Below, piece after piece: positions 22,475 through 52,450 of a stretch of DNA of 64,000 bases. A program made the position numbers and the translations under genes. The stretch is from an uncultured Gammaproteobacteria bacterium (lineage in GTDB: Bacteria; Pseudomonadota; Gammaproteobacteria; JAUZRS01). Below the pieces are notes generated by a model. That model worked only from the letters and a program-made list of their open reading frames with translations. It ran no database searches and was not told the origin of the DNA. The stretch is from NCBI GenBank assembly GCA_964615985.1, contig CAZTQX010000001.1, positions 18,978 to 82,977 of the forward strand, in the 5' to 3' direction. Each line of letters begins with the position of its first letter. The first letter of the stretch is position 1.

Positions 22475-22520
22475 AGTCTGTCCCTGTTGGGGCATGCAAC
22501 TCCTTGGGTAGAAGAGTAAT

Positions 22521-24027: not shown

Positions 24028-25622
24028 GGGGTTGGGGTATCCAAAGTGTGGTTAAAAATAATACGAAAACAGCTGCCGTGATCGCTGGGGAGGTAACGTA
24101 AAGAGGCATTGTTAAAACGGCACAGTTCGCGTGCCATAAAAAGCCCTAAGCCGGTGCCGGTGTTGCTGGAGGTGTAAAAAGGCTCGAACAGTTTGTCCAG
24201 ATGCTGCTGGGGAATGCCGCTGCCGTTGTCGCTTAAATCCAGATAGGGGTGGCCGGTGGAGGGGGTTTGGCCACAGTGGATGCTGATCTGAATGTTCTCT
24301 TTTTGGCCGTGTTTGATGCTGTTACAGCAGAGGTTCCATAAAATCTGATTCAGGTGCAAAAATTCCATGTAAATGGGTTGGGCTTCGTTGCCAAAGTGCA
24401 GTTGCAGATTTTCTGCTGGCCACTTTTGCTGTTGGCAAAAATCAGCAGAAAATTGCAACAGGCTCTGTTGCAGGTCGATGGCGTGGCCGCTGAATTTTTG
24501 CAGTCGTGAGATCTGCATGACATCTTCGATTAGACGATTGATGCGTTGACCGTGATCGAGAATGATCTCCAACAAACGCCCATCTTCAACGCTGATGTGG
24601 GGTGATTCCGCCAACAGTTGTGAGGCGTGGCTGATGGCACCCAGAGGATTACGAATTTCATGGGCGATGTTGGCCGTCAGGTGGCCAAGGGAAGCGAGTT
24701 TGAGCTGCTGCACTTGTTCTTGAATGGCGGAGGTGTCTTGCAGCGAGATCAACCAGCCTTGGTCTTCCAAAGGAGTGAAGTGCGGTTGCAGTTCCGCTTG
24801 GCTGTTGGGTTCTTTGATTGAGCAGGGCAGCTGTTTTTTAGCCTGATGCCATTGATTCAGTGAGTAGTGCAAACGAGGCGCTTGTTGTTTGAGTGATGAT
24901 TTGTGCTGGAGGTTGGAGAGTTTGAGCAGTTCGCGAGCGCTTCGGTTGGCGAGGCGAATTCGCTGGCGGCTGTCCACCACCAAAATGGCTGCCTCCATTT
25001 TTTCGATGATCAGTTCATTCAACTGCGCCATATTTTTCAGGTCAATGCGACTCTGGGTGGCTTGCGCTTCACTCTCGCGGCTGCGCCGTGCCAGCAGCAT
25101 GGCCAGTAGGGCGGTGGCAAATAGGGTTGCGCCGAGAATGCCCGCTTGTGGGTAGTGGGTACTGCTCTGGCCGAGGCTGAGGTGGCTGTAGAGCTGTTCG
25201 GCCAAAATGGCCAAGCTGGCCAGTGCGGCAAACAGCAGTGCCAGACGTTCGGACATCAACACCCCAAAACCAGCGATGCTGATGATCAGCAGCATTCCCA
25301 AACCGCTGTTGATGCCACCGCTGCTGTGCATCAGCAGTAAAATAAAGCCAATGTCGATGCAGGAGCGGGGGATCAATTGCCTCTCAAAAGCCGGTTGTTG
25401 CAGACGTGCCAAGAGAATAAAAGCCAAACTGCTGAGCAAATAGAGAGTGATGATCAGCATAAACAACAGAGGTTGAGTGGAACCTAAAAAGGGCTTTCCC
25501 AGCTCGGAGAGGTAGGTGGCGATGAGGGTGATGCTGAGCAGCAGACGGTAGCCATCCAGCAGCAGCAGCAGCCGCCAGTTGGAGAGTTGGGTTTTTTGGG
25601 TTGGCGGAGGAGCGTTCAGCAT
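24024..25622 (-). CDS. pilS: sensor histidine kinase PilS
   Basis: 532 aa with six N-terminal TM helices, the H-box HEIRNPL and an HATPase domain. Overlaps pilR by 4 nt. Confidence 0.9.
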   Translation of the reverse strand: MLNAPPPTQKTQLSNWRLLLLLDGYRLLLSITLIATYLSELGKPFLGSTQPLLFMLIITLYLLSSLAFILLARLQQPAFERQLIPRSCIDIGFILLLMHSSGGINSGLGMLLIISIAGFGVLMSERLALLFAALASLAILAEQLYSHLSLGQSSTHYPQAGILGATLFATALLAMLLARRSRESEAQATQSRIDLKNMAQLNELIIEKMEAAILVVDSRQRIRLANRSARELLKLSNLQHKSSLKQQAPRLHYSLNQWHQAKKQLPCSIKEPNSQAELQPHFTPLEDQGWLISLQDTSAIQEQVQQLKLASLGHLTANIAHEIRNPLGAISHASQLLAESPHISVEDGRLLEIILDHGQRINRLIEDVMQISRLQKFSGHAIDLQQSLLQFSADFCQQQKWPAENLQLHFGNEAQPIYMEFLHLNQILWNLCCNSIKHGQKENIQISIHCGQTPSTGHPYLDLSDNGSGIPQQHLDKLFEPFYTSSNTGTGLGLFMARELCRFNNASLRYLPSDHGSCFRIIFNHTLDTPTP

Positions 25623-28408: not shown

Positions 28409-29065
28409 CTATGGTTTTCGATACATCAACCAATAAACCAACCGACAACCAAAATAGACCGCAAACCCCGCCAGCACCACATCACTGAAAAAATGCCCCC
28501 CCTGCGCCATCCGCACCCAGCCGATGTAAGCCCCCATGCTCAAACCAAAGGCAAACCAAGCCTTGCGCCGCCAGCCCACAAACAGAAACGCCGGAGCCAT
28601 CAGCACAAACGCCGCCGAAGCGTGGCCGCTGACAAAAGAGCAGTTGTAGGGGCATTGATCGGTGATTTGCCACGCGCGGGTGAACTGCATTTTGCCGTTG
28701 AACTGTGTCACTTCAAAGGGACGCGCTCTCGCCCAATTCTCTTTGAACAGCGCGTTGACGATCAACCCCGGTCCGACGATAAGGCAGAAAAACAGAAACA
28801 GACTGGGTTTGCGCCAGTTATGCCAGTTGCGCAGAAAACTGAGGGCAAACGCAAGCAGCAACAGCAGCACAATGCCACGGCCAATTAGAGGAACCCATTC
28901 ATAAGGCCGCTCAACAATAGCCTGACCTTCCAGTGGAAATCTTCCCAAGACAGGATCATAAAACCAGCCGCTGCTGATCAGATCGATCTCAGGCAACAGC
29001 ACAAACAGCGCACTACAGATCAGTAGCGCCGTCAGTGGCCACTCTCGTTTGAAAAAAGTGAGCAA
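28409..29065 (-). CDS. PAP2-family membrane phosphatase
   Basis: 218 aa with 5-6 TM segments and the PAP2 motif CSFVSGHASAAF. Confidence 0.8.
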   Translation of the reverse strand: MLTFFKREWPLTALLICSALFVLLPEIDLISSGWFYDPVLGRFPLEGQAIVERPYEWVPLIGRGIVLLLLLAFALSFLRNWHNWRKPSLFLFFCLIVGPGLIVNALFKENWARARPFEVTQFNGKMQFTRAWQITDQCPYNCSFVSGHASAAFVLMAPAFLFVGWRRKAWFAFGLSMGAYIGWVRMAQGGHFFSDVVLAGFAVYFGCRLVYWLMYRKP

Positions 29066-29066
29066 A

Positions 29067-29918
29067 CTACTTGCGCATCACAGCGGCTTGCAAGGTGTTT
29101 TCCAACAACATGGCGCGGGTCATCGGCCCGACTCCACCGGGAACGGGGGTGATGTAAGCGGCACGTTCAGCGGCGATGTCGTACTCCACATCACCGACCA
29201 GGCGACCGTCGGCGGTGCGGTTGATGCCCACGTCGATCACCGTTGCGCCTTCCTTGATCCATTCACCTTTCACCAACCCCGGTTTACCGGCAGCGGCGAT
29301 GACGATGTCCGCTTGTTTGACGTGCTTGCGGGTGTCGTGGCTGAAACGGTGGCAGACGATGACGGTGGAACCGGCGATCAGCAGCTCCATCGCCATCGGA
29401 CGGCCAACGATGTTGGAGGCACCGACGATCACTGCATCACGGCCTTTGTACACTTCGCCAACACTGTCGAGCAGTTTGATAATGCCCCACGGAGTGCAGG
29501 GGCGCAGTTGCGGCATTCGCAGCGCCAGCAGGCCGATGTTGTGAGGGTGAAAACCATCGACATCTTTGTCGGGGTTGATTTGTTCGATGACACGATTGCC
29601 GTCGATGTGATCGGGCAGCGGCAGTTGTACCAAAATGCCATCGACGTTGTCGTCGTTGTTGAGCTGCCCGATCAGATCCAACAGTTCCCGTTGGCTGGTG
29701 CTTTGGGGCAGATCGTGAGAGAAGGAGTTGAAGCCCACCTCATCGCAGTCGCGGCGTTTGTGTTTGACGTAGACCTCAGAGGCCGGATCACTGCCGACCA
29801 ACACCACCGCCAGCCCTGGTGCTCTCATGCCAGCGGCCAGTCTATGGCTGACCTGTTCTTTAACGCCGTGGCGAACCTCTTGAGCAATCTGTTTGCCGTC
29901 GATGATCTGTGCAGTCAT
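29067..29918 (-). CDS. folD: bifunctional methylenetetrahydrofolate dehydrogenase / methenyl-THF cyclohydrolase
   Basis: [16 protein letters not shown] is the canonical FolD N-terminus. The six-frame ORF runs further to 29957. Confidence 0.93.
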
Positions 29919-30040
29919 TTCGTTAACCCCATTTTCAGTGGGGCGGAATTCTCTCATGTTGGCTTTGATGCTGACAAGCGTAGTGGCCTGTATTTTGCCG
30001 CTTCTCTTTCACACTCATCCAATTTAGGCGGGAAATCAGC

Positions 30041-31957
30041 ATGGCGTTAAAAAATATGGCTCGACATCAGCAGAGCGGTGGCGGTGAAAGTGGTGGTACG
30101 GATCGGTGGGTGAAATGCAACGCTGAAGATCAGCGTCGCCATGCGCGGACGATGGCCAAACAGCAGCAGGCGGCGGAGCGGATTGCCGCCGCCTCGACGC
30201 AGTTGGCCAGCGGCGTGACACAGGCGGCCAGCGCCCGTGATCAGCTTTCTGTAGCGGTGAATGAAATTTCAGCGGGTGCGGAACAGGCCAGCGGCGCTTG
30301 TGAGCAGAGCCTGTTTTCGATCACTAAAATCACCACGCAAATCAAGCAACAATCTGACTTAGCGGAAACCTCTTCGAGCAAAGCGGTGGCACTGCAAGTC
30401 TTGGTGGATCGTACCTCTGAGGCGATCAGTAACTTGGTGGATAACGTCAAAGTTGCTGCTGATCGTCAAGCGAGTTCGGTCAAAGTGATGGCGGAGGTGG
30501 AGCAGCAGGCGGCCAATATCAATGAATCGGTCAAACAGGTGATGCGGATTGCCGATCAAACCAACCTGCTGGCACTGAATGCCGCCATCGAAGCCGGGCG
30601 CGCTGGCAAACACGGCAAAGGTTTTGCGGTGGTGGCGGATACGGTGCGTACCTTGGCCGAGACCGCTGAAAAAAACGCCCTTGGCATCGCCAAACAGATT
30701 GAGGTGATTCAAGAGTTGGCGCGCAGCGTCGGGGATTCTGTCACCAAAGCGAGTAAAACCGCCTTGGATGAGGTGGAAAAAGGCCAAGTGATTACCCAGC
30801 AGTTGCAGAGTATCAAGGACGATGTTAACGAGGTTTATCAAGGTTCTCAACGGTTGGAGAGCGGTGCTGAAGATATTAACCGTTCGATCTTAGTGGTACA
30901 AAAAGGCGCGGATGTGATTGCCACCGCTGCCCAAGATCAAGCCAGTGCCGCCGAAGAGGTGGTGGCTTCACTGGATCAACAGGAGCAAGCACTGCGTGAA
31001 TCGGAGCAAGCGTCACAAGGGTTAGAGGTACTCTCAGATGAGTTGAAAAACAGTACCGACATCGCCAAAAGCGCCGAGGAGGTGGCGGCCAGCGCCGAAG
31101 AACTCTCTTCGTCCATCGAAGAAATCAATCGTTCAGCGACTCAAATTAGTTCCGCCATTGAGCAGGTCAGTCGCAGTGCCGAGCAGAGTGCCACCGCCAT
31201 TGAGCAAGCGGTCTCTGGGATTGCCGAAGTTGAAAAAGGCGTGGATCTGGCCACCGAAATCAGTGGCTCTGCATTGCAGCGTTGTAAAAACATTCGTGAG
31301 TTATTGAGTGTTAATAAAACCAGCGTTGATGAAATGATCACAGGCATTGGCGATGCGATGGAGTCAGGTCGTGCCAATCTGAAAAACATCGAAGAGGTGG
31401 AGCAGTTGGCGCGTTTGATTGACAAAGTCACCGATGCCATTGCCACCGTCTCGATTAAAACCGGCATGTTGGCGGTCAATGGAGCGGTGGAAGCGGCGCG
31501 AGCCGGTGAATACGGCAAAGGCTTTGCGGTGGTGTCGTCGGATATCCAAAGTTTGGCTGACGATGCGGCAGAAAATGTCGATCAGATTAAAGACCAAGTG
31601 AAAGCCATTCAGGATCAGGCTTCCAAGGTGCGGATTGATTTGACCGAGGTGGCCAACAGTGCCTTGCAAGAGGTTGAACGCACCAAACAGACCACCACCG
31701 ATCTGCTGGCCATCGAAGAGGATATGAGTGTGATTCAGGATGGCAGTGAGCAACTTGGTCAGGTTGCGACTGAAATATCGGCGGCCAGCAACGAGATCAA
31801 ACGCGGCATGGAGCAGATCGCTGCTGCTGCCGAGCAAGCCAGCAGCAATGCCGAAGAAGCATCCATCGCAGCACGACAACAGTCTCAAGGGGCTGAGGAG
31901 TTGGCGGTGGCCACCGAGGAGATCGCCTCCATTGCGGATGAATTGCAGAGTGCGTAA
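30041..31957 (+). CDS. cytoplasmic methyl-accepting chemotaxis protein with two tandem signalling (MA) domains (DosM-like)
   Basis: 638 aa with no TM segment. Two separate receptor-tip motifs are present, [38 protein letters not shown] and [33 protein letters not shown]. Confidence 0.85.
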
Positions 31958-31987
31958 CGGTCATCCAACAACATCAAGGAGAGTGGT

Positions 31988-33529
31988 ATGACGACGGCAT
32001 TAGCAATTGACAACGATCTGCAACAGCAGCCCGACGAGGATGAAGAGCGTGCAGAGGAGCAGAGTCAATACGTCACCTTTCAAGTGGAGGATGAGGTGTT
32101 TGGTTTCCCGATGGAGTCGGTGCTGGAGATCATCCGTCTGCCCACCACCGTCGAGGTGCCGCTGACCCCCAAAGCACTGCTGGGGCTGGCCAATTTGCGC
32201 GGCAGCGTCTTACCGATTTTGGATCTGCGCCAAGTGCTGCACCTGAACAAAACAACCTACAACGATGCCAGCCGCGTGATCGTCACCGATGTCGGCTCGC
32301 CGGTGGGGCTGGTGGTGGACAAGGTCGCACGGGTGATGCAGGTGGAGCCAGAGTGCATCGACCGCAATGAACAGGTGCAGAACAACATCGGCGCGGAGCT
32401 GCTGGAGGGCGTGATCAAAGGTGGCAGCGGCGAGGCGCTGATTCAACTGCTGAACGTGGAGCAGTTGATCAAAGAGGAGTTCAGCGTGGTGCTGGCGGTG
32501 GCGCAGTCGGAGAGTGCCGAGCGTGAGGTGGGGCTGCTGATGCAGCACGAGGTGGAAGACGACACCGATCAACTGGTCAGTTTTACCCTAGAGGATCAAG
32601 AGTACGCCTTCAACTTATTGGAGGTGGAAGAGATTGTGCGCTTGCCGGAGCAGATCTCCAGTGTGCCGCGCAGCGACGCGCATATTTTGGGCTTGATGGA
32701 CCTGCGTGGGCGATTGCTGCCGTTGGTGAGTCTGCGCTGTCTGCTGGAGTTTGAAGAGGCGCAGAGCATTGACGAAGAGAGCCGTATTTTGGTCGTGAGC
32801 GTGAAAAATGCGCAGGGCAAAAAAGAGTCGGTGGGGCTGGTGGTGGACGATGTGAAGGAGGTTTTGCGGGTGGAAAAAGCGCTGCAAAACACCATGCCGC
32901 CGTTGCTGAACCGCAACGAAGAGAGTGCCGAAATCAGCTCCATCTGTCGTCTGGAAGGGGGTCAACGCTTGGTCTCGGTATTGACTGCTGAATCGCTTTT
33001 CGCGTTGCCCAGCGTGCAGGCGGCGATTCAGACAAAAGAGAGCGAAGCGGAGGCAGAGAGTGAGGTGAACGAGATGAAAGAGGGTGATGACGAAACAGCG
33101 CAACTGGTGGTGTTTTTGTTGGGGCAGCAAGAGTACGGCGTGAGCATTGATGACATTCAGGAGATTACCCGAGTGCCAGAGACGTTGGATAAGGTGCCGA
33201 AAACAGCGGAGTCCATTGAGGGCATGGTCAATCTGCGCGGCACGGTGCTGCCGGTGTTGGACATGCGCAGCCGTTTTGATATGCAGAAGATGGCGCGCAA
33301 CGACCGGCAGCGGATCATTGTGTTTAATCTCAACGGTACGCGCACCGGTTTTATTGTCGATTCGGTGGCGGAGGTGCTGCGTTTACCACGGGATCAGATC
33401 CAAGTGGCACCGCAACTCTCGGACGATCAAGCACGGATTATGGGACGGGTGATCAACCTGAAAAAAGAGCAGCGCATGATTCAAGTGTTGGCGACCGATG
33501 AATTGTTAGCAGAAGAAGTTGATGCGTAG
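31988..33529 (+). CDS. scaffold protein with three tandem CheW domains
   Basis: 513 aa. The CheW-like block (...LGL.NLRG..LPI.DLR...) occurs three times, at roughly residues 30-170, 190-330 and 370-510. Confidence 0.85.
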   Translation: MTTALAIDNDLQQQPDEDEERAEEQSQYVTFQVEDEVFGFPMESVLEIIRLPTTVEVPLTPKALLGLANLRGSVLPILDLRQVLHLNKTTYNDASRVIVTDVGSPVGLVVDKVARVMQVEPECIDRNEQVQNNIGAELLEGVIKGGSGEALIQLLNVEQLIKEEFSVVLAVAQSESAEREVGLLMQHEVEDDTDQLVSFTLEDQEYAFNLLEVEEIVRLPEQISSVPRSDAHILGLMDLRGRLLPLVSLRCLLEFEEAQSIDEESRILVVSVKNAQGKKESVGLVVDDVKEVLRVEKALQNTMPPLLNRNEESAEISSICRLEGGQRLVSVLTAESLFALPSVQAAIQTKESEAEAESEVNEMKEGDDETAQLVVFLLGQQEYGVSIDDIQEITRVPETLDKVPKTAESIEGMVNLRGTVLPVLDMRSRFDMQKMARNDRQRIIVFNLNGTRTGFIVDSVAEVLRLPRDQIQVAPQLSDDQARIMGRVINLKKEQRMIQVLATDELLAEEVDA

Positions 33530-33591
33530 GTTGGTGCAAAGGAGCAAAGCGACGTGCCCAACATGATTGAGACGATAAAGAGGAGTTAACT

Positions 33592-34668
33592 ATGCGGAAG
33601 GTTTTGGTTGTTGATGACTCAGCATTGATGCGAAAACAGCTGAGTGACATTTTGATGCAGGGCGGTTACGAGGTACAGACCGCTCGTAACGGTGAGGAGG
33701 GGCTGAACAAGATCGCCTCGTTTGATCCGATGGTGGTGACGCTGGATCTGAACATGCCGGTGATGGACGGCATGACCTGTTTGAGTTTGATTATGCAGAA
33801 ATTTCCACGACCGGTGGTGATGGTCTCCTCGCTGACCGAAAAGGGCGCGTTGGCGACCTTTGAGGCCTTGGAGTTGGGGGCGATGGATTATGTCGCCAAA
33901 CCTGGTGGCACGGTTTCGGTCAACATTCGTGAGGTGGCCGAAGATCTGTTGGCCAAGGTCAATGCCGCTGCCTCAGCGCGGATCAGACCCCGTCGAAAAA
34001 TCGCTGTCAAACCAAGGGCGGTGACAAAGAAAAAACCGGTCAACCTTCAGTGTTCGGAGGGGGTGGTGATCATCGGGGTCTCAACCGGTGGGCCACGCAC
34101 TTTGGAAGGGGTGATTGCCGAGCTACCGCAGACGTTCCCCTTGCCGATTGTGGTGGTACAGCACATGCCCGCCAGTTTTACCGGTCTGTTTGCCGAGCGC
34201 TTGAATAAGTTATCGGCAGTGACGGTAATGGAGCTGGATAAGCCGACTTTTTTGGAGGCGGGCACGGTGTTGGTCGCCAAGGGCAATGCCGATGTGAAAT
34301 TGATCCGCCGCAGCGGTCGTTTGATGGCCTGTCTGACTCCCGAGTCAGGGAAGTTTCTTTGGCATCCCAGCGTGGAGCGGTTGGCAAAATCGGTGCAGCA
34401 GGTCTGTGATCCTGAGCGAGTAATTGCGGTGCAGTTGACCGGCATGGGCAGCGACGGCGCACAGACGATGGCAGAGCTGCATCAACAGGGAGCACGCACC
34501 ATCGCCGAGTCGGAGCAGACGGCGGTGGTTTATGGGATGCCGCGTGAATTGGTGGAGCGGGGGGGCGCTGAGAAAATCCTGCCCTGTGACGAGATCGCTG
34601 CGCAGTTGGTGCGCTGGACAAACGAGATGGCCAAAATGACTCAAGCGCGTCAGTTGGCGCACGCTTAG
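33592..34668 (+). CDS. cheB: chemotaxis methylesterase CheB (REC plus methylesterase)
   Basis: MRKVLVVDDSALMRKQL receiver followed by a C-terminal CheB esterase domain (GVSTGGP, GMP). Confidence 0.92.
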   Translation: MRKVLVVDDSALMRKQLSDILMQGGYEVQTARNGEEGLNKIASFDPMVVTLDLNMPVMDGMTCLSLIMQKFPRPVVMVSSLTEKGALATFEALELGAMDYVAKPGGTVSVNIREVAEDLLAKVNAAASARIRPRRKIAVKPRAVTKKKPVNLQCSEGVVIIGVSTGGPRTLEGVIAELPQTFPLPIVVVQHMPASFTGLFAERLNKLSAVTVMELDKPTFLEAGTVLVAKGNADVKLIRRSGRLMACLTPESGKFLWHPSVERLAKSVQQVCDPERVIAVQLTGMGSDGAQTMAELHQQGARTIAESEQTAVVYGMPRELVERGGAEKILPCDEIAAQLVRWTNEMAKMTQARQLAHA

Positions 34669-34677
34669 GAGGATTTA

Positions 34678-35295
34678 ATGGGTTTTAAAAAAGCAGTTAT
34701 TGAAGATGAGTTGGATACCGTGCTGCTGGAGCGTGATTACGTCACCTTGTTGGCGGAGTTGCAGAGCGAGTTGGTGGCCGAGCGCCGCGATGCGGTGCGG
34801 GAATTGGCAGATTATCCGCAGTCGGTGGTGGCGCTGCTGAATGTTTTGGATGAGGAGCCAGATCATCTGGTGCGCGAGGCGTTGCTGATGAGCTTGCAGC
34901 AGATCGGCGGCGAGACGGTGGTCTCGGGTCTGATTAACTTGCTGCGTTCCGAGGATGCGGTGCTGAGAAACGGTGCCATCGAAGTGTTGCAGAGTATGCC
35001 CGAAGGGGTGGCGCTGCACATGTTGGAGCTGCTGAACGATCAAGATTCTGATGTGCGTATTTTTGCCATCGACATTTTGCAGCAGTTGGCGCATCCGCAA
35101 GCACCGGAGTGGTTGCTGTCGGTGCTCAAAGATGAGACTCACATCAATGTCGTGACCACCGCTGTGGATCGGCTGGCGGAGGTGGGGCGACCGGAGATGG
35201 TGCCGGAGTTGGAGGCGATCAAAGCGCGTTTTCCTGATGAACCTTATTTGGCGTTTGCGGTGGATCTTGCCAGCCGCCGCATTGAGAAGGTTTGA
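34678..35295 (+). CDS. HEAT/PBS-lyase-type repeat protein
   Basis: 205 aa of 4-5 HEAT-like repeats (VRxxAxxxL...) sitting between cheB and cheR. Confidence 0.75.
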   Translation: MGFKKAVIEDELDTVLLERDYVTLLAELQSELVAERRDAVRELADYPQSVVALLNVLDEEPDHLVREALLMSLQQIGGETVVSGLINLLRSEDAVLRNGAIEVLQSMPEGVALHMLELLNDQDSDVRIFAIDILQQLAHPQAPEWLLSVLKDETHINVVTTAVDRLAEVGRPEMVPELEAIKARFPDEPYLAFAVDLASRRIEKV

Positions 35296-36158
35296 TTATG
35301 TTGGCCTCTCCTGTGGCACCTTCGCAGAGCTGCATCACCGATGTGGAGTTTGAGCGTTTTCGAGATTTTTTCTATCGTAAAACCGGGATTAAATTTGAGG
35401 GCAGCAAACGTTATTTTGTCGATAAACGTCTGCTGGAGCGGATGCAGCAGACGGGGCACAGCAGTTTTCGCAGCTATTTTACCTTTATGCGTTTTCAAGC
35501 CACGCGGGATGAGCTGCAAGAGCTGATCAACAGCATGACGGTCAATGAGACCTATTTCTTTCGTGAGGAGTATCAATTCAAGTGCATGGCGGAGGAGCTG
35601 CTGAACGAGGTGGTGCGCAACAAAGCCAAGGGTGAGGGGATTCGCATCTGGTCGATCCCTTCTAGCAGTGGCGAAGAGCCGTACTCCATCGCTCTCTATC
35701 TGTTGGAGCATTGGCCTTTGCTGAATAAAATTGATGTGGAGATCTGTTCCTCGGACATCGACAGCAAGATGTTGCAGAACTGTCGCAAGGGTATCTACAG
35801 CCAGCGGTCGGTGAAGCAGTTGCCCAAGGCATTGCTAAAACGCTACTTCAAAGAGCTGCCAGGCGAGCGATTTCAGATTGACCGCGAATTGCGGGAGTCG
35901 ATTCAGTTCACGCAGGTGAACCTCAGTGATCGGGCGCAAGCGCGGCGTTACAGAAACTTTGATCTGATTTTTTGCCGTAACTTATTGATCTACTTCGATG
36001 AAGCCTCACGCCGTCAGGCGGCGGAGCTGTTTTACGATGCGCTGAACCCTGGGGGATATATTTTTCTGGGGCATTCGGAGTCCATGAGTCGGATCTCGTC
36101 GCTGTTTTCGGTGCGTAAATTTTCTAAAGCGCTGGCCTACCAGAAACCGCTTCGATAG
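35292..36158 (+). CDS. cheR: chemotaxis receptor methyltransferase CheR
   Basis: 288 aa SAM-dependent MTase with CheR N- and C-domains (IWSIPSSSGEEPYSIA, FCRNLLIYFD). Confidence 0.92.
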   Translation: MIMLASPVAPSQSCITDVEFERFRDFFYRKTGIKFEGSKRYFVDKRLLERMQQTGHSSFRSYFTFMRFQATRDELQELINSMTVNETYFFREEYQFKCMAEELLNEVVRNKAKGEGIRIWSIPSSSGEEPYSIALYLLEHWPLLNKIDVEICSSDIDSKMLQNCRKGIYSQRSVKQLPKALLKRYFKELPGERFQIDRELRESIQFTQVNLSDRAQARRYRNFDLIFCRNLLIYFDEASRRQAAELFYDALNPGGYIFLGHSESMSRISSLFSVRKFSKALAYQKPLR

Positions 36159-36166
36159 GAGTTGAA

Positions 36167-36541
36167 TTGAGTATGAAAAAAATTCTAATTGTGGACGATG
36201 CGTTAACAGTTCGTCTTTATCACCGTCAGTTGATGGAGGGTTTGGGCTTTGAAGTGGGTGAGGCAGAGAACGGCATCGAGGCGTTGGAAAAGGGTTTGAG
36301 CGAGCCGTTTGATCTCTTTTTGGTGGATGTGAACATGCCGAAAATGGACGGTTATCGACTGGTGGAAGAGATGCGCCAAGATCCGAGTTTGGCCGCTGTG
36401 CCGGTGATTATGATCAGCACCGAGGAGTCAGAGCAGGATCGCGAGAAAGCCTATCTGAGCGGGGCTAATTTTTATGTGGTGAAACCGGCGGATGTGTCGG
36501 AGTTGCAGACCTACGCTACGTTGCTGGCCGGAGGAGTCTAG
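36167..36541 (+). CDS. cheY: single-domain response regulator CheY
   Basis: 124 aa receiver with KKILIVDD, D57-equivalent LFLVDVNMP and K109-equivalent VVKP. Confidence 0.9.
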   Translation: MSMKKILIVDDALTVRLYHRQLMEGLGFEVGEAENGIEALEKGLSEPFDLFLVDVNMPKMDGYRLVEEMRQDPSLAAVPVIMISTEESEQDREKAYLSGANFYVVKPADVSELQTYATLLAGGV

Positions 36542-36543
36542 TT

Positions 36544-39171
36544 ATGGATCCTATATTGGCCTATTTTCTATCGGAATCACGAGAGAATCTGGAGAGTGCA
36601 GGCCGCTGTTTTTTGGAGCTGGAGCAGACTCCTGACGGCAGCGAGTTATTGGATGATCTGTTTCGTGCCATTCACACCATGAAAGGCTCTTCGGGGCTGT
36701 TTGATATTCCGCCGTTTACCAAAACGGTGCATGCCGCTGAGGATCTGTTGGATCAGGTGCGCAGCGGCGAGGTGATCTTGAGCGCGGAACACATCGACTT
36801 GCTGTTGGAGGTGATGGATCAGATCTCACTCTGGTTGGATGAGCTGGAGTCGCAGGGCTGTTTACCCAGCAATGCGCTGGATGCTGGCGAAGGCTTGAGT
36901 GCCGAGTTACGCGCCATCTACCGTTCAGAGTTAGAGCAAGAGTTGCCTGTGGCAGAGGTGACTCCGACTGCGGTTTCTCAAGAGGCCCTTTCAGAAGCGC
37001 CAACATGGTTGCAGCGGGTGGATGACGGCGAGCGTATGGTGCTGTTTGAGATGCTGCAAACACCTGATAAAGAGTTGACGGCGATTGAGTATCGACCCGC
37101 TGCGGGCTGTTTTTTCAGTGGCGATGATCCGTTACACGTCATGCGTAATCTGCCCGATCTCTGCTGGTTGGCGGTGACTTCTGAGAATGAGTGGCCTGTA
37201 GCAGAAGAGAGGGATCTTTATCAGTGTAATCTGCGTTTTTACGCTCTGAGCTGGGCGAGCAAAACGGAGTTGCAGCACTGTTTTCGTTATCAGATTGAGC
37301 GGGTGACGTTGACATCGTTACAGTCTTCGCAGTTGGTGTTTGCTGAGGGTGTTTGGGGTGACGAGGAGCCGTTTGAGCTGTTTTTACAGCAGGTTCCTGA
37401 ATGGGTGGTGGGGCAAGATTGGTCGCGGTTGGCGGTCTTGATTAAGCCGCTGCTGGAGCTGAGCGGCGCTGAGTTACAGCAGACCTCGGTGCTGCGTTGG
37501 CTGCGCCTGTTGTTGCAGCACGACTGCCAAGATGCAGAATTGTTCCGCTCTCTGTTGGAGGTGATGACCGAGGGCATCTTGCTCTGGCCAGAGCAAGATG
37601 AGGCGGTTGCTGTGGCGGTTTCGACAGAGCAGCGCCAAGCGGCACAGCAGGCGTTGCAGACACAGCGGCAGATTTTGAGTATGCCTTGTGGCGAGGGTGC
37701 GATGCAGGGACGCATCGCCTCGGTCTCGATGGTGATGAGCAACATGATGCAGTTGCTGGGAATGTCGGTGGAGCCGTTGTTGGCGGCACGAGATGCCGCA
37801 AGGCAGAGCGATTGTTTAGATCCGCTGTTGCAGTTTTTGCACGGGTTGGATTTTGTTGCGGTGGCCGAGCCAGTTGCAGAATCTAAGCCACGGCAGTCCG
37901 CTTTGGCACCCTTGTCGCTGTTGCCGCCTGCGGTTGAGCGGCGTAAGTCAGAGCGACGGCTGGACAGTCGTCGTCAAGAGCTTGAAATCCCAGCGATAAA
38001 GACCCTGAAGGTGGATCAACAGCGCATCGACAGTCTGATGGATCTGGTGGGTGAGCTGGTGGTGGCGAAAAATGCGCTGCCTTTTTTGGCTAAACGCGCC
38101 GAAGAGCATTTTGGTGTGCGCCAACTGGCCAAGGAGATCAAAAGTCAATACACAGTGATCAATCGCCTTTCGGAAGAGCTGCAAGGGGCGATGATGCAGA
38201 TCCGTATGGTGCCGATCTCCACCGTTTTTCAGCGTTTTCCGCGTTTGGTGCGGGATCTGTCGCGCAAGCTGGATAAACAGGTGGAGCTGAAATTGGAGGG
38301 TGAGGAGACCGAAGCGGATAAAAACGTGGTGGAAAACTTGGCCGATCCGCTGATTCACTTGGTGAGAAACAGCTTGGATCACGGTTTGGAGAGTGTTGAA
38401 GAGCGCCTCAAGGCGGGTAAACCGGCCAACGGCACCATTACTCTACGCGCCATTGGTCAGGATGATCAGGTGGTGATTGAGATTTGCGATGATGGTCGTG
38501 GCATCGATCCTGGAAAAATCAAACACAAAGCCTATCAAAAGGGTCTGTTGGATGAGCAGCGGCTTGACAGCATCAGCGATCATGAGGCATTGCAGTTTAT
38601 TTTTGCCGCTGGTCTTACCACTGCTGAGACGGTTTCTGATCTGTCGGGGCGCGGGGTGGGGATGGATGTGGTGCGCTCGGTGATTCAGGCGGCGGGTGGC
38701 ACGGTGGAGGTGAGCAGCGAATTGGGGCAAGGCAGCACGGTGCGTTTAAGCCTGCCGCTGTCGATGGCGGTCAGTCGCGTGATGATGATTGAGGTGGCGG
38801 AGCAGAGTTACGGCATTTCCATGGAAAACATCATTGAGACGGTACGCATTCCTCGTGCGGCGGTGCAGCGCATCAAGCAGAGCGAGGCGTTGGTGCTGCG
38901 TGAACGCTTGATTCCGCTGTTTTCCTTGCGGATGTTGCTGGGGCTAGCGCCGATGCAGCAGCAGCCAGAAGAGATTGCGGTGTTGGTGATGATGTTGGGC
39001 AAGGAGGAGGTGGCGTTGGTGATTGATGAGTTTCACGAAGGGATTGATATTATTCAAAAACCGTTGGAGGGGGTAATGGCCAATTATCCGTTCTATTCGG
39101 GCGCGACCTTGCTGGGGGATGGGCGGGTGTTGTTGGTGTTGAATACTCCGGAGTTGTTGGCATGTCGATAA
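36544..39171 (+). CDS. cheA: chemotaxis histidine kinase CheA (Hpt, dimerisation, HATPase, CheW-like)
   Basis: 875 aa with Hpt AIHTMKGSSGLFDI, the G-boxes DDGRGID and GRGVGMDVV, and a C-terminal CheW-like domain. A long ~450 aa insert lies between Hpt and the dimerisation domain. Confidence 0.92.
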   Translation: MDPILAYFLSESRENLESAGRCFLELEQTPDGSELLDDLFRAIHTMKGSSGLFDIPPFTKTVHAAEDLLDQVRSGEVILSAEHIDLLLEVMDQISLWLDELESQGCLPSNALDAGEGLSAELRAIYRSELEQELPVAEVTPTAVSQEALSEAPTWLQRVDDGERMVLFEMLQTPDKELTAIEYRPAAGCFFSGDDPLHVMRNLPDLCWLAVTSENEWPVAEERDLYQCNLRFYALSWASKTELQHCFRYQIERVTLTSLQSSQLVFAEGVWGDEEPFELFLQQVPEWVVGQDWSRLAVLIKPLLELSGAELQQTSVLRWLRLLLQHDCQDAELFRSLLEVMTEGILLWPEQDEAVAVAVSTEQRQAAQQALQTQRQILSMPCGEGAMQGRIASVSMVMSNMMQLLGMSVEPLLAARDAARQSDCLDPLLQFLHGLDFVAVAEPVAESKPRQSALAPLSLLPPAVERRKSERRLDSRRQELEIPAIKTLKVDQQRIDSLMDLVGELVVAKNALPFLAKRAEEHFGVRQLAKEIKSQYTVINRLSEELQGAMMQIRMVPISTVFQRFPRLVRDLSRKLDKQVELKLEGEETEADKNVVENLADPLIHLVRNSLDHGLESVEERLKAGKPANGTITLRAIGQDDQVVIEICDDGRGIDPGKIKHKAYQKGLLDEQRLDSISDHEALQFIFAAGLTTAETVSDLSGRGVGMDVVRSVIQAAGGTVEVSSELGQGSTVRLSLPLSMAVSRVMMIEVAEQSYGISMENIIETVRIPRAAVQRIKQSEALVLRERLIPLFSLRMLLGLAPMQQQPEEIAVLVMMLGKEEVALVIDEFHEGIDIIQKPLEGVMANYPFYSGATLLGDGRVLLVLNTPELLACR

Positions 39172-39401
39172 GTTACAAAAAAACCGTGGCCAAGTTGAGT
39201 GATTTTTGCACCATCGAAGAGGCAGAGCCGTTGTGGGAGTGGCTGTTGGCCAACCCCAACGGCAAGCTGAATCTCAAAACCTTGCAGCATCCGCACAGCG
39301 CGGTGTTGCAGGTGATGATGGCCAATCGGATTTCGGTCTCGGTCTGGCCTGACGATGCTCAGATGACTTTTTGGTTGCAGGCGGCGCTGCGGGATGGCTG
39401 A
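39162..39401 (+). CDS. small conserved-position hypothetical protein (79 aa)
   Basis: Overlaps the cheA end by 10 nt and the ParA-like start by 8 nt, which suggests translational coupling. I recognise no motif; a STAS-like fold is speculative. Confidence 0.45.
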   Translation: MSISYKKTVAKLSDFCTIEEAEPLWEWLLANPNGKLNLKTLQHPHSAVLQVMMANRISVSVWPDDAQMTFWLQAALRDG

Positions 39402-40173
39402 GTGGCAACAGCCGTTGACGCTGGCGATCAGCAATCGTAAAGGCGGCTCGGGTAAAACCACCACGGCGGTGAACTTGGCGGCTGAGTGGGGGCGGCAGGG
39501 GCATCGTGTGCTGTTGATTGATCTGGACAGCCAAGGTCATGCCGCCATCGGTGTGGGCTGTCGAGCGGCGCGGCGTTCGGAGGAGCATGTGCATCAACTG
39601 CTGCATCGACCGGAGTTGGCTTTGATGGACTTGGTGCAGTTAACGCCGATTCGTAACGTCTGCTTGGCTCCGGCCAACACTGATTTTTGTGCGCAAGAGC
39701 TGCCGGTGTTGATCTTAAAGCAGGCGTTGCAGAGCGAGGCGGTGGCGGTGGCCTTTGATCGGGTGGTGTTGGATACCCCGCCGACGATGGATTCGTTGTT
39801 GATCAGTGCGTTGGTGGCGGCGCATTCGGTGTTGGTGCCGTTTGTGCCGCACCATTTATCTGCGGTGGGCGTGCGCCAACTGGCGAAGCTGTTTTATAAG
39901 GTGGCGACGCTGCACAATTCTGACTTGAGGTTGTTGGGTCTGCTGCCGATCATGATGGATCGGAAGTTGAAATTGCAGCAGCGGGTGATGGCGGATTTGG
40001 GGCAGCAGTTCGGACGTGAACGAATCTTGCGAGGCATTCGCAGCAACATCAAATTGGCTGAGGCTTTCGAAGCAGGTGAGCCGATTTTTTCCTACGCTCC
40101 GCGCAGTTCAGGGGCGATGGATTATCAGCTAATGGCTGAGGAGTTGGAGCTTTTTTTTAATCGTAAAGAGTGA
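39394..40173 (+). CDS. ParA/MinD-family P-loop ATPase (chemosensory-array partitioning candidate, ParC/PpfA-like)
   Basis: Deviant Walker A ISNRKGGSGKTTTAVNLAA, 259 aa, embedded in the che operon. Confidence 0.85.
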   Translation: MAEWQQPLTLAISNRKGGSGKTTTAVNLAAEWGRQGHRVLLIDLDSQGHAAIGVGCRAARRSEEHVHQLLHRPELALMDLVQLTPIRNVCLAPANTDFCAQELPVLILKQALQSEAVAVAFDRVVLDTPPTMDSLLISALVAAHSVLVPFVPHHLSAVGVRQLAKLFYKVATLHNSDLRLLGLLPIMMDRKLKLQQRVMADLGQQFGRERILRGIRSNIKLAEAFEAGEPIFSYAPRSSGAMDYQLMAEELELFFNRKE

Positions 40174-40176
40174 GGT

Positions 40177-40551
40177 GTGATGATGAAAAAAATCATGTTG
40201 GTGGATGATTCTATGACCCTGTTGATGAGTATGCAGGGCGTTTTGAAACGTGCGGGTTTTGAGGTGGCCACCGCCAGCAGCGGTCATCAGGCGCTGCGAG
40301 ATATGGGGGCGTTTGCTCCGGATATGGTGATCACCGATCTGAATATGCCGGGGATGGATGGCATTGAGTTTATTAGGGAGACGAAAAAATTGGCGGCCAT
40401 GCGTTTTAAACCGATGTTGATGTTGACCACCGAGTCGCAGCAGGGCAAACGCGATGAGGCCAAGCGGGCGGGGGCGATGGGCTGGTTGGTGAAACCGGTG
40501 GCTCCAGAGCAGTTGACTCAGGTGGTGCGGCAGGTGCTGCCAGGAGCGTGA
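40177..40551 (+). CDS. cheY: single-domain response regulator (CheY-like)
   Basis: 124 aa receiver with MKKIMLVDDS, VITDLNMPGMDG and LVKP. Confidence 0.88.
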   Translation: MMMKKIMLVDDSMTLLMSMQGVLKRAGFEVATASSGHQALRDMGAFAPDMVITDLNMPGMDGIEFIRETKKLAAMRFKPMLMLTTESQQGKRDEAKRAGAMGWLVKPVAPEQLTQVVRQVLPGA

Positions 40552-40575
40552 GGCGGTGATTTTTATGAAGAATTT

Positions 40576-40584
40576 TGTTTCCCC
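40576..40584 (+). repeat. C9 homopolymeric tract in the promoter/5' region of the terminal MCP gene
   Basis: ...gttt CCCCCCCCC gagtaaaagtgag... lies 52-60 nt upstream of the ATG at 40636. Confidence 0.9.
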
Positions 40585-40635
40585 CCCCCGAGTAAAAGTG
40601 AGTTTAATTCTTTTGAATGTCAACTGGAAAATAAG

Positions 40636-42345
40636 ATGAGTTCGATTACAGCCTCTCCGATACGCCATCTCATCGTTGTTATTACGGTTGGTTTTGTGGC
40701 GGTTTTTCTGTTGGTGTGGCTGTTATCTGCACCCTTATTTTTATTGTTGCTGGATTTTGATCTCCTCTATCAGCAATCATTGTTGGCGGCGGTCAGCGCC
40801 AGCATGGTCTTCTGGGTTCTTTTTTCATTTGAGTTGAAAACATCGCGGCACAGACAGGTGATCAATGCGAACCTGCATCGGCGGCAACTTTCGACTCAAA
40901 CGAAAAGCGTCTGTCAAAAAAGTGAAATGGGTTCTGCTTTGTTGTTAAGTCATCTGAACCGCTGTCAACAGCAGGTGGCGGACTTTCACAGCGAGATGCA
41001 GCAGCCGTTGTTGGAGCTGTTGGGTGAGTTAAACAGCCGCCAACAGCAGCAACGGCTGTTGGCGTTGCAAGGCGATTGTGAGCAGCGTATCGAGACACTG
41101 CGCGAGACGTTGGAGCAGGATTCTGAGGCGATGTTGCTGGCGCTGGCTGATGATGAGGTGGTTTTGTCAACGGAGCTGTTGCTGCAACAGAGTCGCACGG
41201 TGGAGAAAATCAGTGGGTTTGCGTTGCAGGGTGCGCTGGCCAGTCAGAATGCTTTGCAGTTGTGGGTTCGTTTGACCCTACCGGATGCGGAGTTGGCGCG
41301 GGAAAGTGACGTGAGTCAGCAGGTGGAAGCGATTCGAGAACAGGGTTTGGAGTACGCTCTGGATGTGGTGGAGCAGATGTTGTTGACGTACAAACAGGTG
41401 GAGGAGTTTCATCATATTCTGGATTCGCAATTGGATGGCGTTGAGCAGTTGACCGAAGAGGCATCGATGGATCTGATGCAGAACATTCAGCAGATTGAGT
41501 CGGCGGCTGAGGATTCAATGCATCAGGTGCGTAAAGCGATTACAGACTCTGCCAGCTTGAGTCAGTGCGGTCAGAGCCGTGTCAGTTCCATTCAGAACAG
41601 CATTGATGATCTGCGCGCTTATGTGGATGAGCGTAAAAGTGACAATATCAATCACTCACAGCAGATTGAGCAGGTCTTACAGGAGGTTGGTAAGTTGAGC
41701 GGTTTGGCTGAGATGGTGAAAAACATCGCCTTTCAGACCAATATTTTGGCGCTTAATGCATCAATTGAAGCGGCACGAGCTGGGCAAGCGGGCAAAGGGT
41801 TTTCGGTGGTGGCCGGTGAGGTACGCCGTTTATCGGAGCAGTCAGAAGAGGCCGCCAATCACATCGGCGAGGGGATTGAAAAAGCGATTGGTTCGGCGCA
41901 TCAACAGATGGATTATCTGTTGGATGAGGAACGTATGGCCAATGAAAATCGGCGTTTAACGGCTTTTGTGACAGATTTGAGTCAGATGGCGGGTATGTAC
42001 GCGGAGTTAGAGAACTTGAATCAGACACTCTTTGATCAGACTTCAAGCAATGTGGAGAAAATTACCAGCTTGACCGTGGAGACTTTCGCGCGGATTCAAT
42101 TTCAGGATATCACGCGCCAACGGTTGGAACAGATCAAGACAGCCCATGAGATGATTGATCGCCATATTATGGCGTTACCGGCGGCGATTTTGGAAAAGAG
42201 TGCGTTTTACGCTCTGGACGGTTTGGAGCTGGATGCGCTTTATGAGGGCTACTACATGGAAGATCAGCGCCAAATTCATCAGCAAGCCACCGGCATGGCT
42301 TGCCCAACCCCGCAGCCAGAGCTGCCTAAGATTGAGCTGTTTTAA
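40636..42345 (+). CDS. transmembrane methyl-accepting chemotaxis protein
   Basis: 569 aa with two N-terminal TM helices and the tip motif [38 protein letters not shown]. Confidence 0.88.
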
Positions 42346-42998
42346 ACGCTGACCTTGGCAGGCCACAATTCCTCGATTTTTTCCGGAGCCAAGTAGACCA
42401 GCAGATAAACTTCTGTCTGCCCACCATCAAAGACCTGCACCTCAAGGGCGTAATTACGATCATCACTCATCAGTAAATAGTAGCTAAAGGCGGTGCCTTC
42501 GTCGGCATCTTCGGGTAGTGACAGACCGCGATAATCTTGCTCATAAAAATAAGCGTTATGCCCCTGTTCTTGACGATAGACCGGCGCAACCCAGCCGTCG
42601 AACTCTTCTGCTTCCGCGATGCGTTCCAAAACGTGATGAGTGCCTGTTTCGGGATCAAGCAAGTCGATAAAAGCATCCATATCGAAAATTTGCTGCACAT
42701 CGTCCGGCAGCAGTGGAATGGCAACCTCCAAGCGTTCTTGCTGGCGCTCTTTAACCACCGCCAAACGCAGCAGGCAACCATCGCTGTTTTCAGTGGTGAA
42801 GACGGTTTTGCGCTTCTGCTCACCGCCCAGATCGTAGCTGTGAACGTCCTCAATAACAAAAGATTGGTTGCTGATGGCGGCTTGGGCGGCAAAGCCGAAT
42901 TTGGCGATGTCGCCCACTTGCAGGTTTTTGGGGTGCTCCAGCCGCCGAGCCGGAGGTTCGTCCGTTTCGGAGCTGAAGATACTTTTGAAAAAACTCAT
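42342..42998 (-). CDS. YjfK-like protein (DUF2491)
   Basis: 218 aa, the same size as E. coli YjfK, and directly downstream of a PspA/IM30-family gene. Confidence 0.5.
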
Positions 42999-43697
42999 CT
43001 AGCCACCGGCCTGCTGTTTGGCTTTCAGGCGTTCCAAAATGGAGTTGCCGGAAGCCGCGCCGCTGACGATGCCCGCTTCTTTGAGTTTGGCGCTCAGATC
43101 GGCACCGCTGCCTTCGTTTTGCAGCTCCATCGCCGCCTGCATCTGATCTTGGCGTTTCTGCTGTTTGGCTTTGATCCGTTCCAGCGAGTCAGTGGCCGAA
43201 CGCATGGAGGAGTTGCTGCCAGAGAATTTGGCTGCTGCTGCTGAATTGGCTTTGTTGACCGCTTCGGTGGTTTTCACCACGGATACTTCCCGCTCCATCG
43301 CTCGCACGTTGCGCTCGGTCTCATTGATGGTCTTTTTCAACTGACTGACGTTGTTGTTGTAGCCGTCGAGTAGTTTTTGTTGGGCATCCAACTCTTCGCT
43401 GATCTCAGCGATTTTGTTCGCTACTTCCAGAGCCAGAGCATCGTTGCCGGATTCCATCGCTTTGATGGCGTAACCTTCGTGTTCGGTGACGGAAGCAGAC
43501 AGTTGTTTGACCTTGCGATCCACGCCCATTTTTTCCGCCATCACACCGGTGAGACTCTGTTTGGCTTGATTCAGGTGGGTGCGTGCATCGCGCATCTCTT
43601 GATCGAGAATTCGCAGGGCTTGGGTGTCCACAATCGCTTCACCCACTTCGGTGGCTCCGCCACGGACGGCAGTCAATAATTTGTTCCAAATGCTCAT
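42999..43697 (-). CDS. PspA/IM30 (Vipp1/ESCRT-III-like) family protein, YjfJ-like
   Basis: 232 aa coiled-coil protein whose N-terminus MSIWNKLLTAVRG...QALRILDQEMRDA is typical of PspA/YjfJ. Confidence 0.8.
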   Translation of the reverse strand: MSIWNKLLTAVRGGATEVGEAIVDTQALRILDQEMRDARTHLNQAKQSLTGVMAEKMGVDRKVKQLSASVTEHEGYAIKAMESGNDALALEVANKIAEISEELDAQQKLLDGYNNNVSQLKKTINETERNVRAMEREVSVVKTTEAVNKANSAAAAKFSGSNSSMRSATDSLERIKAKQQKRQDQMQAAMELQNEGSGADLSAKLKEAGIVSGAASGNSILERLKAKQQAGG

Positions 43698-43706
43698 AAT
43701 GAACTC

Positions 43707-44126
43707 CTAGTTCAGATAGTCTTGCAGGGTTTCGATGGCGCTTAAGCTGTTGTCGCTCAGCACACAAATTTCATCAATCAGATCATCCAGTGAGGGGTTG
43801 GCGCTCATGGCTCCAAAGATCAGGTATTGATCGCCGACTTTGCCAAACGAAGAGAGCGGCATGGGTAGGTTCATGGTGGTCATGGCATCCAACATGGCGC
43901 AGCGCTGTTCGGCTTTGACCTCTTTTTCAGCCCAAAGATAGCTGGTGCAGAGCAGTTGCTCAGCGTCGAGGCTGATAAAAATAGGGAACTCTTCGCGGTC
44001 TTCAATCTCCACTTGGATCACTTTTGATCCGTCGTGATCCATCATGGTGGCGGAGAGTTTCATCCCTTCTTCGGTCTGGTGACCGTTCAACTCTGTGGCG
44101 AAATTGGCCAGTGCATCGTTGCTCAT
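43707..44126 (-). CDS. YjfI-like protein (DUF2170)
   Basis: ~139 aa acidic protein immediately upstream of the PspA-like gene, matching the yjfI-yjfJ-yjfK order of E. coli. Confidence 0.5.
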   Translation of the reverse strand: MSNDALANFATELNGHQTEEGMKLSATMMDHDGSKVIQVEIEDREEFPIFISLDAEQLLCTSYLWAEKEVKAEQRCAMLDAMTTMNLPMPLSSFGKVGDQYLIFGAMSANPSLDDLIDEICVLSDNSLSAIETLQDYLN

Positions 44127-44244
44127 AATAACTCCTGATTGAAAAAAGACCTTGTTGCCAAGGAGATGTAAACGATATGGGGGGTGTGACACGCATTTCA
44201 AGAATAAATTTCAGAGGCTTGGAAAAAAGCCCCTGTTGGAGGTT

Positions 44245-52448: not shown

Positions 52449-52450
52449 GA

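Follow-up and report, generated by a model that had tools for sequence, protein, structure and literature searches.

To our knowledge, class F9 chemosensory systems build the only purely cytoplasmic, double-layered chemoreceptor arrays, whose structure is known and whose function is not. The class is defined by the tandem-signalling-domain receptor DosM, the triple-CheW adaptor CheW3, the gene order M-W-B...R-Y-A and 44H receptors (PMC9321776; also PMC7534058). The published order is [DosM W3 B. R Y A. Y M] in Vibrio cholerae and [DosM W3 B. R Y A.. Y M] in Salinimonas lutimaris, the dots standing for unnamed genes (PMC9321776, Table S6); in V. cholerae it corresponds to cluster I (VC1394-VC1403), with DosM as VC1403, CheW3 as VC1402 and CheA1 as VC1397. 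Here we describe a string of 11 co-directional + strand open reading frames (ORFs) at 30041-42345 of a 64-kb stretch of DNA (64,000 nucleotides of contig CAZTQX010000001.1, assembly GCA_964615985.1; hereafter the window) from an uncultured marine gammaproteobacterium. Judged from its genes, this locus is very probably a complete class-F9 chemosensory operon, that is, a system of a known kind with sequenced examples of the same order, and it includes a ParA-like ATPase gene that is tied, among its relatives, to a discrete insert in CheA.

The architectural signatures and the gene order of the class are found in the locus. It encodes a soluble chemoreceptor with tandem methyl-accepting chemotaxis protein (MCP) signalling domains and an adaptor with three concatenated CheW domains, and its genes follow the M-W-B...R-Y-A order (compared with Tables S1 and S6 of PMC9321776). 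The full order, DosM W3 B (HEAT) R Y A (79 aa) (ParA-like) Y M, is the Salinimonas pattern. We then scanned the GTDB species representatives with a CheW3 alignment, which yielded at least 571 relatives; the best 80 loci were kept, that of V. cholerae not being one of them, and loci from Vibrio nitrifigilis, Litorivicinus, an Enterobacterales metagenome-assembled genome (MAG), Magnetococcales, a metagenome contig and Vreelandella aquamarina were added. ORFs were called in all loci and the window's 11 proteins were compared with them by BLAST. The counts given hereafter cover a non-redundant set of 63 F9 loci that have CheA, of which 62 are comparison loci and one is the window. Across the comparison loci the core order is nearly invariant: about 60 GTDB genomes share it, as do V. 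nitrifigilis, Litorivicinus, Magnetococcales and Vreelandella aquamarina. Since it recurs in dozens of unrelated genomes, the gene string is far beyond chance.

The class of CheA was judged by proxy, through the bit score against the window CheA and the adjacency of a CheW3 gene. CheA homologues at 369-1198 bits, in 60+ loci, each adjoin a CheW3 gene, and the sole non-F9 CheA in these loci scores 161 bits; a distant 644-aa CheA match also sits in an F9 cluster, of alpha-proteobacterial type. The window CheA is not of the ChpA/Tfp (type IV pilus, Pil-Chp) type, as it has a single Hpt and no receiver domain, where kinases of that type have several Hpt domains and a C-terminal receiver. ChpA-like proteins are weak matches to it (<= ~265 bits), and no PilG/H/I/J-type gene order is present in the operon. 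Signatures, gene order and CheA/CheW3 context thus agree with the central claim of a preliminary description of this DNA, made from the sequence alone, which had proposed a complete F9-like operon of the cytoplasmic-array type; neither a Tfp-type CheA nor a membrane anchor on the double-domain MCP, either of which it would have taken as refutation, is present. What weighs against this reading is that the assignment rests on architecture, synteny and context-anchored similarity rather than on class hidden Markov models (MiST/Wuichet-Zhulin), and that array formation, ParA function and output are here matters of prediction from genes.

The features of the locus are, in order:

29958-30040, no strand: divergent intergenic region of 83 bp between folD (- strand) and the first che gene, presumed operon promoter
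30041-31957, + strand: DosM-like soluble chemoreceptor, 638 aa (MCPsignal x2, Pfam)
31988-33529, + strand: CheW3, three concatenated CheW domains, 513 aa (PF01584 x3, E 4.7e-90)
33592-34668, + strand: CheB methylesterase with N-terminal receiver, 358 aa (PF00072 + PF01339; NF001965 at 344.7 bits, cut-off 293)
34678-35295, + strand: HEAT-repeat protein, 205 aa (HEAT_2, E 2.2e-20)
35292-36158, + strand: CheR methyltransferase, 288 aa (CheR_N + CheR); first 4 nt shared with the HEAT gene
36167-36541, + strand: CheY-type single-domain response regulator 1, 124 aa (PF00072, E 1.5e-26)
36544-39171, + strand: CheA histidine kinase, 875 aa (Hpt + H-kinase_dim + HATPase_c + CheW)
37348-37596, + strand: four-helix insert module in CheA, residues ~269-351 (CheA alignment, AlphaFold2 model)
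39162-39401, + strand: small conserved F9 protein, 79 aa, predicted mini-STAS fold (AlphaFold2/Foldseek); overlaps the cheA stop by 10 nt
39394-40173, + strand: Soj/ParA-type deviant Walker A ATPase, 259 aa (AAA_31/CbiA/ParA; AAA_31 E 8.9e-33)
40177-40551, + strand: CheY-type single-domain response regulator 2, 124 aa (PF00072, E 4.3e-26)
40636-42345, + strand: membrane-anchored MCP, 569 aa (MCPsignal x1 at 339-458; signalling tip ~386)

All 11 ORFs are present with the coordinates first reported for them, and their domains agree with that list (Pfam, NCBIfam). From gene 1 to gene 11 the spacers measure 30, 62, 9, -4, 8, 2, -10, -8, 3 and 84 nt, so that the range of 0-50 nt given previously has to be corrected to -10 to +84 nt, with two spacers above 50. 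This pattern fits a single operon, and a Shine-Dalgarno-like GGAG/AGGAG precedes most starts. Both CheY proteins are plain receivers in which DD10-11, D54, T85 and K106 are all present. The operon promoter is presumed from position only, because a sigma-70 consensus scan gave no + strand site in 29958-30040. Over the operon, the sigma-70 promoter and terminator scan returned counts at or below shuffled expectation and is hence uninformative, and an Rfam scan of the window gave no match. An ORF at 29049-30050 (+, 333 aa) was treated as a shadow ORF: it runs antisense to folD and into the start of the DosM gene, and Pfam gave no match for it.

The preliminary description had likened the string to V. 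cholerae cluster I. This holds for ten of the 11 genes, which stand in the same order, while the ParA-like gene is extra in the window; the comparison is one with the published gene order and with a Vibrio congener (V. nitrifigilis). The published V. cholerae order places a single unnamed gene in the gap from cheA to the second cheY, and the cluster I gene list has no ParA. Likewise, the small protein stands alone in the cheA-cheY gap of V. nitrifigilis and Litorivicinus. From the single-gene gap in V. cholerae and V. nitrifigilis, together with the lack of a ParA in cluster I, it follows that the ParA-like gene of the window is an addition.

The added gene encodes an ATPase with an intact deviant Walker A motif (KGGSGKT at 16-22, with K16 and K21), followed by DLDSQG at 43-48 and VLDTPP at 125-130. 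Its nearest solved structure is Soj of Thermus thermophilus (1wcv, E 4e-38, over residues 10-251). ParA-like genes are found in 27/63 F9 loci, and the 26 products outside the window are 41-92% identical to the window ATPase. The gene lies directly after the small gene in 13 of these loci (window included), after the terminal MCP in 12 and elsewhere in 2; two loci were too short to judge. Judged by sequence, the F9-linked ParA-like genes form a coherent orthologue group and are a frequent F9 accessory. A limited literature search, which is not proof of novelty, found no paper linking DosM or F9 with a ParA-like protein.

The second element of the comparison lies within the kinase. The window CheA consists of an Hpt domain at 4-95 (P1, with H44), a dimerisation domain at 486-553, HATPase_c at 601-740 and a CheW domain at 746-872, with ~390 residues between P1 and P3. 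An insertion between P2 and P3 has been reported for CheA-F9 in Vibrionales chemosensory systems (bioRxiv 10.64898/2026.05.11.724241), and the window CheA has one as well. An AlphaFold2 model of CheA 96-485 (mean predicted local distance difference test score, pLDDT, 84) predicts an alpha/beta part at ~175-265, a four-helix module at ~275-343 and a second helical module at ~361-433; the helices of the four-helix module (model residues 180-248) reach pLDDT > 90. A fold search of this model against the PDB gave no match at E <= 0.001, the best hits being generic ferredoxin-like folds.

In an alignment of the 63 CheA sequences, the four-helix module (~80 aa, residues ~269-351, with the motif QxSxLRWL) is present in 27/27 loci that have ParA. 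Of the loci without ParA, 16 have it and 20 show a clean deletion, so that 0/20 module-less loci have ParA (Fisher p 8e-7). In a neighbour-joining tree of CheA P3-P5 the module-less state appears in at least 8 separate places, and in none of them with ParA. Among these are Litorivicinus, which falls inside the window's own clade; Falsiroseomonas, beside Methylobacterium; Allochromatium and Thiorhodococcus, within Chromatiaceae; Pseudomonas and Halomonas; and Vibrio. The four-helix module is the best candidate for the contact of the ParA-like ATPase on the array. A comparable arrangement has been described for the LID domain, which lies between P2 and P3 of the Vibrio F6 CheA and occurs only in species with ParC/ParP (PMC7534058); the two are likened here by position and co-occurrence.

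Several observations count against a dedicated link between ParA and the module. The Fisher statistic ignores phylogeny. Relaxed constraint on the module in loci without ParA was considered and no clear relaxation was seen: the module is about equally conserved there, with a pairwise identity of 0.35 as against 0.33 with ParA. The coupling is also one-way, and may reflect shared ancestry, because the module is found in 16 loci that have no ParA in the operon. Finally, a ParA homologue 45% identical to that of the window is encoded in Thiorhodospira sibirica (locus L090, 9001-9798) away from che genes, and the boundary of the ParA-like family is hence not sharp. In the loci that keep the module without ParA, either ParA may be encoded at another place in the genome or the module may serve some other role. 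If F9-type ParA genes are at times unlinked from the cluster, this could account for F9 loci that have the CheA module but no local ParA.

Array positioning by ParA-like ATPases has precedents in PpfA/TlpT and in ParC/ParP with the CheA LID (PMC3964821; PMC7534058; PMC11407121). By analogy with PpfA in Rhodobacter sphaeroides, we lean towards the view that the ParA-like ATPase uses the nucleoid to position the cytoplasmic array and to partition it. The protein might instead be no nucleoid partitioning motor at all, acting as a ParC-like polar-targeting factor or as a target or regulator of signalling, for instance via the adjacent CheY. Indeed, ParC is encoded in a che operon, sends arrays to the pole and has not been seen on the nucleoid (PMC11407121), and in about half of the ParA loci the ParA-like gene lies directly between the STAS-like gene and CheY2. 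In the other half, however, it follows the terminal MCP, and adjacency to CheY2 is therefore not conserved. Furthermore, the operon genes and the scanned flanking ORFs yielded no ParP-like gene (single CheW-like AIF domain), CheW3 and CheA P5 being the only CheW-domain proteins among them; the array is of the cytoplasmic type, to which the PpfA precedent applies (PMC3964821); and the nearest solved relatives are Soj/ParA DNA-segregation ATPases, not MinD/FlhG membrane binders. We consequently regard a role outside nucleoid partitioning as improbable.

A broader proposal can be made, which we put forward tentatively and do not hold to be the likelier case: that the ~40% of F9 clusters, this one among them, that encode a dedicated Soj-type ParA use it with the CheA module as a third system for positioning arrays, besides ParC/ParP and PpfA/TlpT, and one that has yet to be described. 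The STAS-like protein, the basic DosM N-terminus or both may also be part of it. If this is true, membrane-free chemoreceptor arrays would owe their placement and partitioning to such a system, which would have been missed because the V. cholerae model has no ParA.

The two receptors of the operon differ in their relation to the membrane. The DosM-like protein had been called soluble, and a hydropathy scan bears this out: it has no transmembrane (TM)-like segment, the maximal 19-residue Kyte-Doolittle mean being 1.08. It carries two hairpin tip motifs with GKGF ends, at 175-195 and 492, spaced by exactly 300 aa, and an internal repeat (55-272 versus 355-572, 28% identity). Its arms of ~148-154 aa amount to 21-22 heptads, a length that would fit 44H, and three methylation-type motifs stand at 302, 350 and 385. 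The N-terminus follows a pattern kept in essentially all F9 loci, MALVKK, a low-complexity linker and (R)EAEAQRKRARTLAKQQ; that of the window (residues 1-42, 30041-30166) is a variant starting MALKNM. This conserved basic segment resembles, by analogy, the short basic N-terminal peptides of ParA/MinD partner proteins. As a ParA-specific peptide on the model of TlpT it was rejected, for MALVKK...QRKRARTLAKQQ is conserved with and without ParA alike.

The terminal MCP has two adjacent hydrophobic segments at about residues 10-38 and 47-66, with TM-like stretches within 3-45 and 47-67, which make a TM hairpin without a periplasmic domain. The terminal "M" of the F9 order is a conserved family, most members of which have 400-445 aa and likewise a TM hairpin that lacks a periplasmic domain; in V. 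cholerae the counterpart of the window protein, VC1394, has been reported as 24H (PMC7534058). The window protein and its homologue in the closest MAG are longer, as ~135 residues that match no Pfam family are added between TM2 and the signalling domain.

Both unnamed genes of the published F9 order can provisionally be identified by comparison. The one between cheB and cheR probably encodes a conserved HEAT-repeat protein, a homologue of which is found in 62/62 comparison loci. The one after cheA would correspond to the 79-aa protein, with a predicted minimal STAS fold. Sequence searches of the latter family against Pfam and the PDB gave nothing significant. It comprises 104 homologues, mostly of 77-86 aa, a few of which are labelled anti-anti-sigma factor at source, and one of which carries PF13466. 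An AlphaFold2 model built on a 54-sequence alignment (pLDDT 94) gave RsbV, SpoIIAA, MlaB and SLC26 STAS as top PDB structures in Foldseek, with probabilities of 0.99-1.0, an E of only ~5e-3 and TMq of 0.5-0.68. Residue Ser/Thr46 of the family, analogous in position to the phosphorylated serine, is not invariant. The small protein follows cheA in at least 50/62 comparison loci regardless of ParA; we considered it as a ParA-specific partner and set this aside, since its presence does not depend on ParA. Both proteins are conserved accessories of the F9 system.

Taken together, the gene set suggests the following mechanism. By homology with V. cholerae cluster I, DosM would span two opposed baseplates of a CheA and triple-CheW scaffold, giving a membrane-free, sandwich-like receptor array in the cytoplasm. 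Because DosM has no sensor domain, signals would have to enter via other receptors co-assembled with it. CheA would then phosphorylate both CheYs and CheB, while CheR and CheB would adapt the array by receptor methylation, for which DosM carries methylation-type motifs. The ParA-like ATPase would position and partition this array over the nucleoid, with the four-helix module of CheA as its candidate contact.

As for the output of the system, the operon encodes no domain that would reveal one. We see flagellar modulation or cross-talk with a second chemotaxis system as a plausible output without judging it probable, and rank it slightly above a non-motility one. Flagella are present in 97% of F9-bearing species, and only 3/72 species have F9 as their sole system, which nearly always stands beside another F class (PMC9321776). 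Two further points bear on the output. Deletion of cheA1 in V. cholerae has no detectable phenotype under standard conditions, so that no output is known there (PMC7534058), and no flagellar genes are found in the 64-kb window, which says little about the whole genome. The same lack of a chemotaxis phenotype, with the expression of V. cholerae F9 genes in starvation, low oxygen and stationary phase (PMC7534058; PMC9321776), speaks for an alternative cellular function, in which the array would sense metabolic, redox or stress state and the CheYs would regulate something other than swimming or twitching, for instance biofilm, gene expression or stress physiology. One conserved component of the system is the protein with a predicted STAS fold, a fold typical of stress modules that work by partner switching, and a PspA stress gene cluster lies immediately downstream of the operon. 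This is a convergent - strand block at 42342-44201, with a 218-aa protein without Pfam match, PspA/IM30 (42999-43697) and DUF2170 (43707-44201). The block holds the same place in the closest MAG, yet it is absent from the other F9 loci compared; moreover, the operon has no GGDEF, HTH or similar output domain, its regulators are plain CheY-like receivers, and the prevalence of flagella among F9 species points the other way. A non-motility function therefore seems to us rather unlikely.

Proximity to pilus genes had led to the earlier hint of a role in twitching. In the window, pilS, pilR, pilA, pilB, pilC and pilD occupy 17481-25622 on the - strand, ~4.4 kb from the operon, and the lack of flagellar genes in the window would likewise suit control of type IV pilus twitching. 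Yet this proximity carries no information. The order over 1-25622 is murG, murC, murB, ddl, ftsQ, ftsA, ftsZ, lpxC, an M23 peptidase gene, secA, argJ, a NUDIX (mutT)-ThiE fusion, zapD, coaE, pilD, pilC, pilB, pilA, pilR and pilS; the pil genes lie near the operon because the core dcw-lpxC-secA synteny holds a housekeeping pilSR-pilA-pilBCD-coaE-zapD block. Between this block and the operon stand four unrelated genes on mixed strands, namely nadE, a coproporphyrinogen-oxidase-like gene, PAP2 and folD (29067-29957, -), and F9 loci of other genomes have unrelated neighbours. The single-Hpt, receiver-less CheA is also unlike the ChpA-type Tfp kinases, and the Pil-type gene order is missing, as described above. 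Given the housekeeping nature of the pil set and the unrelated neighbours elsewhere, we consider control of twitching by this operon highly improbable.

Further downstream in the window, an Rnf-type electron transport cluster is likely at 49988-55640 (-), where two ORFs were scanned and matched an RnfC-like protein (53488-55071) and an FMN_bind protein (51804-52787). Two convergent, paralogous-looking giant proteins follow, of 1072 aa (56470-59688, +) and 1093 aa (59713-62994, -). In both, a STAND/AAA_16-NPHP3_N NTPase stands at the N-terminus and a BTAD (SARP-type) domain at the C-terminus, along with TPR repeats, and one has a weak, sub-threshold Trans_reg_C match.

Metagenome contigs of JGI and Logan contain exact matches to the window CheA sequence. 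Among assembled relatives the closest is the Gammaproteobacteria MAG GCA_030949385.1 (locus L002), in which the same 11 genes are present and CheA is 70% identical. Its flanks also match those of the window: PAP2 and folD come before the operon, and a 220-aa gene, pspA and DUF2170 come after it. It follows that the operon has been inherited vertically in this lineage.

Two of the comparison loci show departures of their own. In the Enterobacterales MAG GCA_030949565.1 (locus L004, 7004-8093), CheB is split into a receiver ORF of 132 aa and a methylesterase ORF of 189 aa within an otherwise identical F9 and ParA cluster; a frameshift, a pseudogene or misassembly may account for the split. The F9 cluster of the Magnetococcales MAG GCA_015228775.1 (locus L005; 5689-6621, 12667-13158 and 16540-22667) has three unusual features: an extra CheV-like gene (CheW + receiver), a small STAS-like protein of 163 aa owing to a low-complexity tail, and, directly after it, a further che cluster that is not of class F9 and includes a CheA-receiver hybrid.

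The operon adds no new kind of system, and the main gain comes from its comparison with ~60 relatives. Two "unknown" genes of the canonical F9 order gain provisional names, as HEAT protein and mini-STAS protein. The ParA-like ATPase, through steps that we infer, becomes a frequent orthologous F9 accessory tied to a discrete CheA insert. This link would be a concrete handle on the positioning and inheritance of cytoplasmic arrays, and it can be tested in cultured carriers of the same 11-gene order, such as Vreelandella aquamarina or Marinomonas ostreistagni.

How the locus stands among known systems can be summarised as follows. R. sphaeroides CheOp3 shares with it a ParA-like ATPase inside the che operon, and the CheOp3 array is cytoplasmic with a double baseplate (PMC3964821). 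In contrast to the window, CheOp3 has a split kinase (CheA3/CheA4) and a single-tip TlpT, and neither DosM nor CheW3. Its PpfA is stimulated by the TlpT N-terminus; the window ATPase is likened to PpfA by family and by its place in a che operon. CheOp3 had been said to have no known behavioural output, which is mistaken, as it is essential for normal chemotaxis (PMC3964821; PMC6829392). The ParC/ParP systems of F6 clusters (Vibrio, Pseudomonas, Halothiobacillus) also have a ParA-like ATPase in the che operon, and the P2-P3 region that carries the insert in the window CheA holds in their kinase an extra domain, LID, tied to the positioning system (PMC7534058). Unlike the window system, however, ParC/ParP serves polar membrane arrays, needs ParP and depends on HubP.

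Within class F9, V. cholerae cluster I and the window have in common the order DosM-W3-B-(HEAT)-R-Y-A-(small protein)-Y-M(TM), the triple CheW, the soluble double-signalling receptor and a CheA with an insertion between P2 and P3. The window CheA has 875 aa as against 758 aa in V. nitrifigilis, being longer because of the ~80-aa four-helix module, and the ~135 extra residues of the terminal MCP likewise set it apart from a V. cholerae-type cluster. S. lutimaris is likened to the window by published order only, its two unnamed genes being known by position. Both S. lutimaris and Vreelandella aquamarina differ from the window in host lineage and flanking genes. The cultured Vreelandella aquamarina (CP085232) nevertheless has the identical 11-gene order, with a ParA-like protein 54% identical to that of the window, a CheA of 957 aa and a small protein of 83 aa.

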